Source: a virus (Duplodnaviria; Caudoviricetes). From it: a stretch of DNA of 64,000 nt. Numbering within the stretch: the first letter of the stretch is position 1; each line of letters opens with the position of its first letter. Positions 8,140 to 11,872 of the stretch are shown in pieces. Made by a program: the position numbers and the translations under genes. The stretch is from positions 511 to 64,510 of the IMG/VR virus record IMGVR_UViG_3300042378_000447. The stretch is one strand, 5' to 3'. The notes under the pieces are model-generated. The model saw nothing but the letters and a program-made list of their open reading frames with translations, was not told the origin of the DNA and did no database searches.

Positions 8140-9903
8140 ATGAAAACTTTTGAATTTAAACTTGACCCCACGGTTGCACAGGTACAAACGATTAATCAAT
8201 GGCTAGACAAACTCAAGTGGGTTTGGAATACAGGGCTGTCACTCAAACTAGCAGGAAGACAGAAATATTATAGAGAGAAAGAAATAGGCGATCGCATTAT
8301 TCCTGATGGTGTAGTTTTGCAGTGGAAATGGCGAAAGGTTGTTACTGAAGACAAGAAAGGTAAGTCTACTGAGAAATGGGAGAAAGTCCGCTTAGTCGGT
8401 ACAGGTGTCATCAGACCTAAAAGCGGTCATCCTTACTGTGAAATTAGACAACACTTAAATATTGAAAACCCTGATAAATATGGACAATGTGAATTTTATA
8501 GGAGTGACAATATTCCCGACTTTATGGCAGATGTTCCCACTAAATTTAAGGCAGGGGTAATTGATTCTTTAAAGAAATCATGGAAAGCTTACGTTACTCC
8601 AAAACACCCCGGTAGAAAGCCAAAATTCAAAGGGAGAAATGATAAAATCAAGTCGCTTGTTAATCTCAATGCTGGGGGTTTATCTAAAGAACTAAAACCA
8701 GAAAAAATACCCGGTTCAAATAATGGTTATGTCCAGTTCCCCAAGCTTGGTAAAATTAAAGTTAAGGGATTATTTGATAGATATGACTGGCAAGAATGGG
8801 GTCCAGCCAGAATAGTTAAAGAACCATCAGGTTACTATCTTCATGTATGCGTTGATATCCCCAATGACCCATTACCAAAATCTGATAAAGCAGTAGGAAT
8901 TGATCCGGGTTTACTATCAGTTATCACCACAGATCAGGGGAGAGAAGTTGAGCCGCCTAAGCTATTTAGGAAACAACAAACTAAGCTAAGACGGTTACAG
9001 CGTAAAGCGTCTAGGCAACAAAAGGGAGGATGTAATCAGAAGAAAACCTATCAAAAAATAGCCTTACACCATGAAAAGATCCGCCGCAGCCGCAACGCAT
9101 TTAATCATAAGCTATCTACTAAAGTTGTGCGTGAGTATTCTGGCATTGTCATGGAAGACTTAAAGATACAAAACCTGAACCGTAAGCCCAAAGCCAAGAA
9201 ACGTGAGGACGGCAATGGCTATGAACAAAACGGTGCAAAACGTAAAGCTGGGTTAAACAAAAGTTTTGCCGATTCAGCACTGGGTGATTTAATCAGTAAG
9301 ATTGAAACAAAGTGTAAAGATACTGATAGAGAGTTTGTAAAAGTTGCAGCACACTACACTACGGTTGACTGTTCAAAATGTGGTGCTAAAATAAAGAAAG
9401 CATTGAGCCAAAGAACTCACCGCTGTACAGAATGTGGTCACACTGAAGGACGTGATTCTAACGCAGCTAAGAACATCTTGCTCAAAGGCAAAAAACAATT
9501 ATCAGCAGTGTACCGCGCTTGGGCGTGGGAACATGGGGAAACCCGAAAGCCTGGCTCTGATTCCAATACGGAATGTCACCAGGAAGGTGTGAAAGCACCA
9601 CCGGAGGATGGATATTCCTCCCAATTAAACCCCGAAAGGGGAACTCAGCGCGGAAGGGGGGATGTAAAAACCTCTAAAGCCGTGAAAACAACCTCAAAGG
9701 TAGACACCGTAAGCAATCTGAACCTTGACAATTTATCCATCACCCGCGCACCTTACCCAGTAAGCATTTCAGCTAATTCAGCGAAAACTCAAAAGCCTGG
9801 AACAAAGAAAAATAAGAGATCCGCGCGATCGGGGGATGAAACCTTTACACAGCTTACGATCTGGGATACGGCAGGTGAAACCGGACTTGGGGAACTGAGT
9901 TAA
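8140..9903 (+). CDS. TnpB-derived compact type V effector (Cas12f/V-U-like), predicted active RuvC
   Basis: RuvC-I GIDPG, RuvC-II MEDL, Zn ribbon CSKC..CTEC, RuvC-III RDSNAAKN; stop codon lies inside the first CRISPR repeat. Confidence 0.85.
   Translation: MKTFEFKLDPTVAQVQTINQWLDKLKWVWNTGLSLKLAGRQKYYREKEIGDRIIPDGVVLQWKWRKVVTEDKKGKSTEKWEKVRLVGTGVIRPKSGHPYCEIRQHLNIENPDKYGQCEFYRSDNIPDFMADVPTKFKAGVIDSLKKSWKAYVTPKHPGRKPKFKGRNDKIKSLVNLNAGGLSKELKPEKIPGSNNGYVQFPKLGKIKVKGLFDRYDWQEWGPARIVKEPSGYYLHVCVDIPNDPLPKSDKAVGIDPGLLSVITTDQGREVEPPKLFRKQQTKLRRLQRKASRQQKGGCNQKKTYQKIALHHEKIRRSRNAFNHKLSTKVVREYSGIVMEDLKIQNLNRKPKAKKREDGNGYEQNGAKRKAGLNKSFADSALGDLISKIETKCKDTDREFVKVAAHYTTVDCSKCGAKIKKALSQRTHRCTECGHTEGRDSNAAKNILLKGKKQLSAVYRAWAWEHGETRKPGSDSNTECHQEGVKAPPEDGYSSQLNPERGTQRGRGDVKTSKAVKTTSKVDTVSNLNLDNLSITRAPYPVSISANSAKTQKPGTKKNKRSARSGDETFTQLTIWDTAGETGLGELS
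9508..9660 (+). ncRNA. candidate tracrRNA/omegaRNA-like scaffold inside the 3' tail of the effector CDS
   Basis: TACCGCGCTTGGGCG motif shared with locus 2; split anti-repeat CAATTAA+CCCCGAAAGGGG hairpin+AACTCAG (9622-9648) complementary to repeat CTGAGTTAATTG; ends approximate. Confidence 0.55.
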
Positions 9904-11872
9904 TTGCAAGACTAATTTTGCCTAGTATCAATCAACTAACTTGATGGGTGAAACCGGACTTGGGGAACTGAGTTAATTGCAAGATTATGTCCCATTACCT
10001 GATTCAGCACTTGATTCGGTGAAACCGGACTTGGGGAACTGAGTTAATTGCAAGCTCTAACCAGAACCCAATTATGGAAAATAGTCAGGTGAAGGTGAAA
10101 CCGGACTTGGGGAACTGAGTTAATTGCAAGTGAGCATTTAAGCTTTGTTCAGACCATAGCTTCATTGGTGAAACCGGACTTGGGGAACTGAGTTAATTGC
10201 AAGAGCATCAAAGTAGAGTCCCATTCAAGCCCGCCCCACGGTGAAACCGGACTTGGGGAACTGAGTTAATTGCAAGTTTGTCTCACATGTTCCAAAGTTG
10301 GATTTAGTGCCGGTGGAGGTGAAACCGGACTTGGGGAACTGAGTTAATTGCAAGATCTTCTGAATTTGAGTCTCTTATTCGGAAAAGGTGAAACCGGACT
10401 TGGGGAACTGAGTTAATTGCAAGGCACATTGCACTGATAAAGAGATTAAACGGTCGTTGGTGAAACCGGACTTGGGGAACTGAGTTAATTGCAAGTTCAT
10501 TTAGTTCCACCGGCACTAAATCCAATTTTGGTGAAACCGGACTTGGGGAACTGAGTTAATTGCAAGTTACTTTATAAGGCATAATAAAAGCATGAATGAG
10601 GTGAAACCGGACTTGGGGAACTGAGTTAATTGCAAGTTTGGAAGTTTCCAAGGTTCGAGTAAAAATTCTGGGTGAAACCGGACTTGGGGAACTGAGTTAA
10701 TTGCAAGTTATCGCAGGGAAAAAAGGTAGTGGTAAATCTCATTGGTGAAACCGGACTTGGGGAACTGAGTTAATTGCAAGGCTATTAATTGCTAAAAAAG
10801 CACTTGGGCGGGCTTTAGGTGAAACCGGACTTGGGGAACTGAGTTAATTGCAAGGACTTTCAAAAAACTAGGAATAAAGACAAGAATATTGGGTGAAACC
10901 GGACTTGGGGAACTGAGTTAATTGCAAGTAATAGATTGGGGAATAGGAGGTAAGTATGGGCGATCGGTGAAACCGGACTTGGGGAACTGAGTTAATTGCA
11001 AGCGCATATCCCTAGATTAGATTTAGTGCCGGTGGAAATTGGTGAAACCGGACTTGGGGAACTGAGTTAATTGCAAGCCACTTCTGGAATATCTCGCCGC
11101 GCCCGTCCTCAGGTGAAACCGGACTTGGGGAACTGAGTTAATTGCAAGACTTGGTTTACTAATCTATGGCTAGAGATATTCTGGTGAAACCGGACTTGGG
11201 GAACTGAGTTAATTGCAAGAGTCAGGGATTTTGAGGTGGCATAAGCAGCCATACAAGGTGAAACCGGACTTGGGGAACTGAGTTAATTGCAAGATGTAAG
11301 ACAGCCTGGCGCTATACTTCTCTATATAGGTGAAACCGGACTTGGGGAACTGAGTTAATTGCAAGTAGGGACAAAAGAATAGAAAATGTCAGGTTGTCAG
11401 GTGAAACCGGACTTGGGGAACTGAGTTAATTGCAAGGACGGCTAAGGAAATTTGGCAACTACTAAAACAAGGTGAAACCGGACTTGGGGAACTGAGTTAA
11501 TTGCAAGAGTGAAATTTACGCCAGTCTGGACAATGGCGAGGTGAAACCGGACTTGGGGAACTGAGTTAATTGCAAGAGAGGATGCTCCGGGGTATGGTAA
11601 AGATTTTTGGAGGTGAAACCGGACTTGGGGAACTGAGTTAATTGCAAGTTTGCTCTTGTGGGGTGCGATCGCGCACCTGGTCATTGGTGAAACCGGACTT
11701 GGGGAACTGAGTTAATTGCAAGTTTGCTCTTGTGGGGTGCGATCGCGCACCTGGTCATTGGTGAAACCGGACTTGGGGAACTGAGTTAATTGCAAGGGAA
11801 TTGTCTCCTGTGGCGTGCCTATCTATTAGGTAATAGGTGAAACCGGACTTGAGGAACTGAGTTAATTGCAAG
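9874..11872 (+). CRISPR. CRISPR array 1: 28 repeats of GGTGAAACCGGACTTGGGGAACTGAGTTAATTGCAAG (37 bp), 27 spacers of 32-41 nt
   Basis: counted directly; only the last repeat carries a G>A change, so the leader is on the cas-gene side; spacers 25 and 26 identical. Confidence 0.97.

Follow-up and report, generated by a model that had tools for sequence, protein, structure and literature searches.

A tracrRNA probably encoded within the translated C-terminal tail of a viral type V-U2 (C2c8) effector

Introduction

TnpB, the nuclease of IS200/IS605 transposons, is reported to process its own mRNA into its guide RNA, the omegaRNA or right-end RNA (reRNA), which shares the 3' end of its sequence space with the gene of the nuclease, overlapping that gene at its 3' end. 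[quoted passage not shown] Cas12n (type V-N, formerly V-U4 or C2c9), a miniature TnpB-like Cas12, has been termed an early evolutionary intermediate in the available parts of two reports: it has a disordered tail, a tracrRNA that overlaps the corresponding part of its open reading frame (ORF), and the array next to it (PMC12216341; 10.64898/2026.03.27.714800); the tail is reported there to be dispensable (10.64898/2026.03.27.714800). Overlap with the end of the ORF is already published for the tracrRNA of Cas12n and for the omegaRNA of TnpB; it is not described for the type V-U2 effectors, C2c8. Here we analyze a C2c8 gene, effector 1, in a stretch of 64,000 nucleotides (the window) from a virus (Duplodnaviria; Caudoviricetes), positions 511 to 64,510 of the 64.5 kb IMG/VR virus record IMGVR_UViG_3300042378_000447, and propose that positions 9508-9910 probably hold a tracrRNA inside the translated tail of this effector.

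The second effector of the window, effector 2, is Cas12p. According to the available part of its report, Cas12p is phage-encoded, recognizes a GTN protospacer adjacent motif (PAM), uses a tracrRNA of 118 nt, has a disordered C-terminal domain and is activated by host thioredoxin; in its structure the last four bases of the repeat, AAAC, form a pseudoknot with nt 7-10 of the tracrRNA (AAAC:UUUG), and its single-guide RNA (sgRNA) contains only 10 nt of the repeat, in a short repeat:anti-repeat (R:AR) duplex (bioRxiv 10.1101/2025.01.20.633832). For C2c8, the paper on cyanophage CL131 found no tracrRNA, a 2024 review table lists V-U2 as uncharacterised with tracrRNA 'no', and the main texts of the literature searched describe no C2c8 tracrRNA, guide RNA, PAM or activity.

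Results and discussion

The frame of effector 1 ends inside its own CRISPR array

Effector 1 (8140-9903, plus strand; 587 residues) is a TnpB-derived RuvC nuclease. It matches the NCBIfam model NF038192 (V_cas_c2c8) with 487.6 bits and an E-value of 4.4e-146 at a cut-off of 350 bits (486.7 bits in the record-level search) and contains the Pfam domains OrfB_IS605 and Cas12f1-like_TNB. The RuvC triad (D255, E339, D439) and the zinc-ribbon cysteines (C411, C414, C429) are invariant across 58 aligned homologues; the curated model and the intact triad both place the protein in C2c8, and the model for transposon TnpB (NF038281, IS200_TnpB), at 171.9 bits under a cut-off of 425, does not claim it. 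The nearest solved relative is Cas12p (9jfs, 9jg3; phmmer E 8.9e-30, Foldseek E 4.8e-23), followed closely by TnpB, that of ISDra2 included (8h1j, 8bf8), which has the same fold and RuvC/zinc-finger core. Cas12n, the closest precedent for a tracrRNA in a disordered ORF tail, ranks fifth (9j09, phmmer E 2.5e-18), behind Cas12p and TnpB, and is a different family, to which effector 1 does not belong; LaTranC (9jfq, 9jfo) is a weaker match than any of these three. Effectors 1 and 2 share 26% identity.

Beyond RuvC-III (DSNAAKN) the protein continues for 142 residues, somewhat more than the ~130 low-complexity codons of an earlier annotation that a model had made from the letters of this stretch (hereafter the original prediction); 'low-complexity' is loosely right, in that AlphaFold2 (58 sequences) gives pLDDT (predicted local distance difference test) values of 80-95 across most of the core and below 50 at residues 468-587. 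This predicted disordered tail (9541-9903, plus strand) coincides with the RNA gene and extends across the leader into repeat 1. As that annotation had it, the stop codon, TAA 9901-9903, falls within repeat 1 (9874-9910), the first in an array of 28, and the coding sequence contains the scaffold, the whole leader and the start of the repeat.

A structured, covarying RNA underlies the tail

The segment 9505-9665 folds well as a single sequence (z = -2.42; 3 of 200 shuffles fold as well). In an alignment of nine sequences, 93.6% of the cells are paired, compared with 38-44% when the partners are slid, and 14 of the 42 pairs have changed on both sides; shuffled alignments average 5.5 such pairs, none of 500 reaching the observed number, and the slid controls have 0-4. 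RNAalifold, given 12 sequences and no structure, predicts helices H0, H2, H3 and H4, with compensatory changes in 16 of 23 pairs. A covariance model built on the 12-sequence alignment and run against 49 sources finds matches outside its training set, downstream of other C2c8 genes, in the related loci L023, L063, L058, L057/L024 and L062; in L023 (E 1.9e-7) the matched segment is non-coding and begins beyond the stop codon, at a distance of 78-200 nt.

All helices are on the plus strand. H0 (9509-9533), predicted by RNAalifold and carrying a compensatory G-C to C-G exchange in L060, presents the loop CUUG (9518-9521), complementary to the last four bases of the repeat, CAAG. H1 (9536-9544) is a small hairpin, GGG-GAAA-CCC, not present in some relatives; its alignment pair 32-40 is GC in eight sequences and GU in one. 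H2 (9550-9583) has an outer part, CCUGG/CCAGG, and an inner part, UUCC/GGAA, with all cells (100%) paired and compensatory changes in one of five outer and three of five inner pairs. H3 (9586-9599), GGUGU-GAAA-GCACC, is likewise 100% paired; two of its four shared pairs are compensatory, and two pairs have changed on both sides in 5 of the 12 sequences. H4 (9603-9621), GGAGGA/UCCUCC, directly precedes the anti-repeat, is 96% paired and shows compensatory changes in all six of its pairs.

One such exchange is visible in the protein. Where the window encodes YRAWAWE, L060 has YRPWGWE; the changes from A to P and from A to G are the two sides of one H0 pair, G-C turned into C-G, and in H0 it is thus the RNA that dictates the protein sequence. 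Rfam contains no family that matches the window at its gathering score; at E<=1, the segment 9400-10000 yields one chance-level match below threshold (RF03140, 16.2 bits against 37.5).

The RNA is predicted to pair with the repeat at two sites

The anti-repeat follows H4 and consists of two arms. Arm a (9622-9628, plus strand), CAAUUAA, complements UUAAUUG of the repeat, and arm b (9642-9648, plus strand), AACUCAG, complements CUGAGUU (with CUGGGUU repeats, one of these pairs is G-U); joined, they are the exact complement of the repeat's CTGAGTTAATTG. Between them stands a hairpin, CCCC-GAAA-GGGG (9630-9641, plus strand; CCCCGAAAGGGG), which occurs only in one set of loci, group A, and is enlarged in Dolichospermum circinale by an in-frame insertion of 12 nt. 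Both arms and the hairpin had been recognized at 9622-9648 by the original prediction.

Taken alone, the split complement is only moderately significant, because 11 of 1000 mononucleotide shuffles of the tail reach its 12 nt; over the whole window, the pattern CAATTA-N5-25-AACTCAG has two matches where 0.12 are expected (100 shuffles), the second of which (10765-10791, minus strand) is the repeat read backwards. The strong evidence is covariation: in related loci, the sequence at this position is complementary to the repeat of the locus itself. CAATTAA(C) pairs with (G)TTAATTG in the window and in D. circinale; in CL131, CCAACTACATTACATCC after H4 faces the repeat GGATGTCATATAGTTGG with 15 of 17 bases paired; in L011, CCAATCACATATCATCC at the same place faces GGATGTCATGTGATTGG; and L015 has a similar anti-repeat with one mismatch. 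Because it covaries with the repeat across other loci, we regard the anti-repeat as real; a covarying anti-repeat beside a conserved structured scaffold is one mark of a tracrRNA-dependent type V system, and effector 1 has both.

The second site escaped the original prediction. In 12 of 12 loci the H0 loop, 7 nt after a conserved UACC, holds four bases complementary to the end of the repeat, in three states (the repeat ends of effector 2, L057 and L060 were set by eye): CAAG:CUUG in loci like the window, L060 among them, and, with a G-U pair, in L015; AAAC:GUUU in effector 2, L023 and L057; and AAAG:CUUU in L022. No locus has the complement of another class at this offset, save for one overlapping 4-mer in L023. 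Effector 1 thus resembles Cas12p in its proposed pseudoknot (R:AR-1) between the H0 loop and the repeat end, as it does in its disordered C-terminus.

By analogy with Cas12p, the pseudoknot and CAATTAA:TTAATTG are probably the functional core, with a core tracrRNA of about 9509-9628, and the hairpin 9630-9641 and AACUCAG would extend the duplex. A three-way junction formed by the hairpin and the second arm, as originally proposed, is plausible, perhaps for processing of the pre-crRNA, and effector 2 has an analogous split anti-repeat; on the other hand, the cofold of scaffold and repeat lacks arm a, and 10 nt of repeat suffice in the Cas12p sgRNA. Folded by itself, the repeat of array 1 forms no significant hairpin (z = -1.42; 20 of 200 shuffles fold as well).

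The frame of the tail is held open, its residues are not

Selection on the tail differs from that on the core. Between the window and D. circinale, substitutions in the core fall 27/10/122 on the three codon positions, with a ratio of nonsynonymous to synonymous substitution rates (dN/dS) of 0.06 and a synonymous divergence (pS) of 0.42; in the tail they fall 18/21/19, with a dN/dS of 0.93 and a pS of 0.17, so that synonymous divergence is lower in the tail than in the core. Nine further pairs give a dN/dS of 0.05-0.11 for the core and 0.54-1.17 for the tail. Over the RNA, the residues of the tail are whatever the RNA dictates.

The reading frame itself is nevertheless preserved. In the window, L004, L006, L008 and L009, frame 0 of the tail is free of stop codons and continues into repeat 1; in L011, L015 and L024 its one stop is the terminal one. 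The remaining two frames have 6-8 stops in the window and 1-12 across lineages. By shuffling, a frame so open, with 0 stops where the others have 5-9, has a probability of 0.001-0.007 per lineage, and the indels between open-frame lineages are of 12 nt and in frame.

A conserved C-terminal peptide probably explains the open frame

Two peptide elements stand at the end of the tail. The first is a basic patch, KKNKRSARS (9805-9831, plus strand), which recurs in distant homologues as a K/R-rich segment ending in RSAQ, usually before the second, QLTIWD (9850-9867, plus strand), a form of the β-clamp-binding consensus Q-L-x-L-F. Of 245 protein homologues at E<=1e-30, 120 are listed, and on these the motif counts rest: within the last 45 residues, 83 of the 120 among the matches listed have Q-[LMI]-x-[LIF]-[WFLY] (68) or a form longer by two residues (15); for control windows, placed within the first 400 residues, the count is 3 of 958. 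Its codons vary synonymously (CAG/CAA; CTT/CTG/TTG; CTC/TTA/CTT), and conservation is thus at the level of the peptide. In loci whose scaffold is non-coding, effector 2 included, the QLxLW motif was not found. These conserved elements at the C-terminus are probably why the frame of the tail is kept open. The residues past the motif, GETGLGELS, come from in-frame reading of repeat 1; similar ends (..AAPETG, ..EEIRSEG) occur elsewhere in the family, and in L060 their origin from the repeat is confirmed on the DNA.

What the peptide might bind is suggested by its consensus. Tn7 TnsE and many IS transposases are coupled to the replisome. The consensus Q-L-x-L-F is, in the available part of PMC4549789, typical of unstructured C-termini of clamp-binding proteins, transposases included; effector 1 has its motif at residues 571-575 of 587 (QLTIW), in the region of pLDDT <50, as is characteristic of these proteins, and departs from the consensus at position 5, with W for F. 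In complex predictions of residues 530-587 with D. circinale DnaN, three runs score 0.46, 0.30 and 0.47 (median 0.46; best control 0.02), share at least 43% of their contacts and give a partner pLDDT of at least 37. They pass a mark that 51 of 78 solved complexes reached, as did 2 of 108 mismatched pairs, at scores of 0.60 or below, a range that holds only 5 of those 78 complexes and all 4 passing mismatches (of 180), and so lend the pairing weak support; as clamp-peptide complexes have already been solved, the pass may reflect likeness only. Titles and the beginnings of abstracts in the part of the literature surveyed hold no description of a clamp-type motif on Cas12 or TnpB.

It is thus conceivable, though we hold it as a tentative model only, that the QLxLW peptide and the basic patch form a sliding-clamp motif through which V-U2 effectors attach to DnaN on DNA under replication, and that the frame is held open for this purpose. 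If so, it would make for a replisome-coupled Cas12, and for a rare case in which DNA under selection for RNA structure serves, as protein, only as a linker to a downstream peptide signal. The clamp-like C-terminus would also suggest a link to a host factor, parallel to the thioredoxin dependence of Cas12p in the same phage locus.

The layout recurs throughout C2c8

A search with effector 1 returns 11 related viral loci; cyanophage CL131 is 77% and a D. circinale contig 88% identical. One of 30 pattern matches in a search of genome contigs is a relative, and C2c8 proteins above the cut-off occur in 6 of 401 genomes sampled from the phylum of the D. circinale contig; sampling of its order gives 19 of 401. 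The tail is read through in 13 loci (in L007 the contig ends before the outcome of the tail), and the layout recurs in C2c8 relatives down to ~33% identity. The frame of L011-L015 ends at a TGA that stands 7 nt ahead of repeat 1. In L022 (482 residues), L023 (510 residues) and effector 2, the frame stops right after RuvC-III and the scaffold lies in non-coding DNA. Compared with Cas12n, most C2c8 homologues differ in ending with the basic patch and QLxLW, and the ORF of effector 1 in spanning the whole leader into repeat 1; compared with Cas12p, whose tracrRNA follows the stop codon and whose C-terminus is without QLxLW, it differs in both respects. The difference from TnpB lies in the guide, which here comes in trans from an array of 28 repeats and not as the single guide that flanks a transposon.

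Two loci depart from the pattern. CL131 (L005) has a premature TGA (3890-3892) where the window has CGA (9544-9546), and later a frame change; this C-to-T exchange turns a G-C pair of H1 into G-U, retaining the RNA fold and losing the protein tail, and nucleotide identity with the window extends beyond the stop codon. L010 has a deletion of 167 nt (at ~4560-4570) equivalent to 9707-9873 of the window, which takes out the leader and, in it, the basic patch and QLTIWD; the repeat follows directly on the scaffold, and the ORF ends at a TGA formed at the start of the repeat.

A further set of C2c8 relatives, in cyanobacterial genomes, is without the zinc finger and RuvC-III (L051, L052, L055, L056; also L053 and L054). 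In the first four, the ORF runs across the same scaffold to an end in ..GGTTGCAAG, followed by one guide-like sequence and no array, and the anti-repeat after H4 complements ..GGTTGCAAG, over ~13-15 nt in L051. These proteins look like nuclease-dead derivatives of the TldR type.

A proposed model and its expression

We propose that the RNA encoded at 9508-9910 would act as a tracrRNA of ~118-140 nt, starting at ~9509 with H0, continuing through H1-H4 into CAAUUAA and, after the inserted hairpin, into the second arm, AACUCAG; both arms would find their partner in the 3' half of each repeat, whose last four bases would form the pseudoknot with the H0 loop CUUG. The tracrRNA:crRNA duplex would then bind the effector and guide its RuvC nuclease to DNA, as in the neighboring homologous Cas12p. 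At the protein level, the same DNA would be translated into a disordered tail ending in the basic patch and the QLxLW peptide immediately before repeat 1. The effector mRNA, the tracrRNA and the pre-crRNA are probably one transcription unit, from whose 3' part the guide RNAs would be cut.

The promoter scan called no promoter in the leader. A sigma-70-like site (9365-9392; TTGACT-16-TAAAAT, TG-extended) lies in the coding region of the zinc finger, ~115 nt before the start of the scaffold, and may serve the tracrRNA and the array as an internal promoter. The region is present in RNA libraries: metatranscriptome contigs cover 9579-9902 in four of four runs, from four studies; one run has a contig of 166 nt (9490-9655) and no sequence upstream of it, in another the depth is 33.8 for the tail contig and 3.2 for the contig of the upstream coding sequence, and a contig of 858 nt bridges 9041-9903. 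Such contigs show neither ends, strand nor abundance and may include DNA, and they are a hint only.

Weighing the alternatives

The original prediction saw in effector 1 a transitional form, whose omegaRNA had split only recently and whose overlap with the coding sequence was a leftover of TnpB. The scaffold does overlap the coding sequence as TnpB omegaRNAs do; TnpB is, just behind Cas12p, the nearest solved relative by both Foldseek and phmmer; and the single-guide relatives have the same scaffold with ..GGTTGCAAG directly before one guide, from which it follows that the 3' end of the repeat is homologous to that of an omegaRNA. A recent split is nonetheless unlikely. The layout is common to homologues down to the identity given above, their C-terminal peptide is conserved and the frame is under selection for it; array 1 is mature, with 28 repeats and 27 spacers of distinct lengths; and the single-guide relatives, being without zinc finger and RuvC-III, look derived rather than ancestral. 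Repeat ends of the type ..GGGATTGAAAC, which several C2c8 arrays have, are frequent among cyanobacterial arrays that belong to other CRISPR types, and if this holds, capture of an existing array and duplication of an omegaRNA are equally likely. The deep spread within C2c8, the selection on the frame and the mature array thus point to a layout that is old and maintained, not transient.

We find it quite unlikely that the tail is not meaningfully translated, the ORF being a chance read-through and the RNA all that matters. This would account for a tail dN/dS near 1 and the lack of third-position bias, for the stop at the equivalent of codon 467 and the frame change in CL131, for the stops after RuvC-III and the non-coding scaffolds of L022, L023 and effector 2, and it would accord with the reported dispensability of the Cas12n tail in the part of that report available. 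It would not account for a frame 0 free of stops, the terminal one aside, in eight lineages (the window, L004, L006, L008, L009, L011, L015, L024) whose other frames have 1-12, for indels in multiples of three, or for a motif with synonymous codons in 83 of the 120 homologues among the matches listed. Most improbable is a tail that is a protein domain or linker alone, its complementarity to the repeat fortuitous and the crRNA sufficient by itself. The 'no' of the 2024 review table, the failure of the CL131 paper to find a tracrRNA and the 11 of 1000 shuffles that reach the split complement would fit; but four helices covary, the anti-repeat and the pseudoknot follow the repeat of each locus, the synonymous rate of the tail is below that of the core, the repeat is without a significant hairpin, and the homologous Cas12p needs a tracrRNA, according to the available part of its report.

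Several results weigh against a tracrRNA within a translated tail. CL131 is an exception to the open frame, with its premature TGA and five frame-0 stops in the tail, and L010 is without the equivalent of 9707-9873; because of these two, the translated tail must be dispensable in some lineages. On the side of the RNA, the sequences used are mostly close relatives, giving the covariance model an effective sequence number of 1.95, and this model has no match at E<=1 at the scaffolds of effector 2 or L022. A long-range closing stem of the minimum free energy (MFE) fold (CCGCGC/GCGCGG) is not kept in a second set of loci, group B, and was dropped. The cofold of scaffold and repeat called for by the original prediction recovers, in its MFE structure, AACUCAG:CUGAGUU and not CAAUUAA:UUAAUUG, and RNAduplex does not place the window's own anti-repeat first. 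A matrix of RNAduplex energies for own and foreign repeats was also dropped as a test: it finds the group B anti-repeat cleanly and is not diagnostic for group A, because an anti-repeat interrupted by a hairpin cannot be modeled in this way.

With these points considered, we still infer a tracrRNA within the translated tail, at the strength stated at the outset. The covariation-backed model (start at ~9509, H0-H4, pseudoknot, anti-repeat) makes the C2c8 family directly testable, and an sgRNA for C2c8 could be designed by analogy with the neighboring solved Cas12p. The tail is also a clean natural case of overlapping constraints, in which base-pair covariation drives amino-acid changes and selection on the protein only keeps the frame open.

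Arrays and neighboring features

In CRISPR array 1 (9874-11872, plus strand), 28 repeats, each of 37 nt, alternate with 27 spacers that are 32-41 nt long; its first repeat encodes the last nine residues of effector 1 and the stop codon. Three spacers (10277-10317, 10496-10529, 11003-11040) have a 17-nt core in common, one of them in reverse. No PAM is derivable from the 8 viral contigs in which this core occurs, none of which matches a whole spacer; in these contigs the core appears to lie at the 3' end of a gene.

Effector 2 (12933-14801, minus strand), also named 'Cas12 hacker', is a TnpB-like protein of 622 residues, convergent on effector 1 (tail-to-tail), with an array of 11 repeats at 11905-12648. 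Its tracrRNA region is non-coding and lies just past the stop codon, after which stands the 5' scaffold motif UACCGCAGUUUGG. Over residues 1-613 it is 100% identical to PDB entry 9jfs_A, so that the record is either the type V-P locus already published or a relative identical to it.

In L021, L023, L057/L024 and others, chromosomal C2c8 genes stand beside arrays whose repeats end in ..GGGATTGAAAC, and L024 has a cas2-like ORF just downstream; this suggests that C2c8 genes share or have captured host arrays. A motif, GAACCTTGA(A/C)AA, is found at 9720-9735 of the window and recurs between scaffold and array in distant C2c8 loci; in L023 and L024 it lies just past the stop codon.

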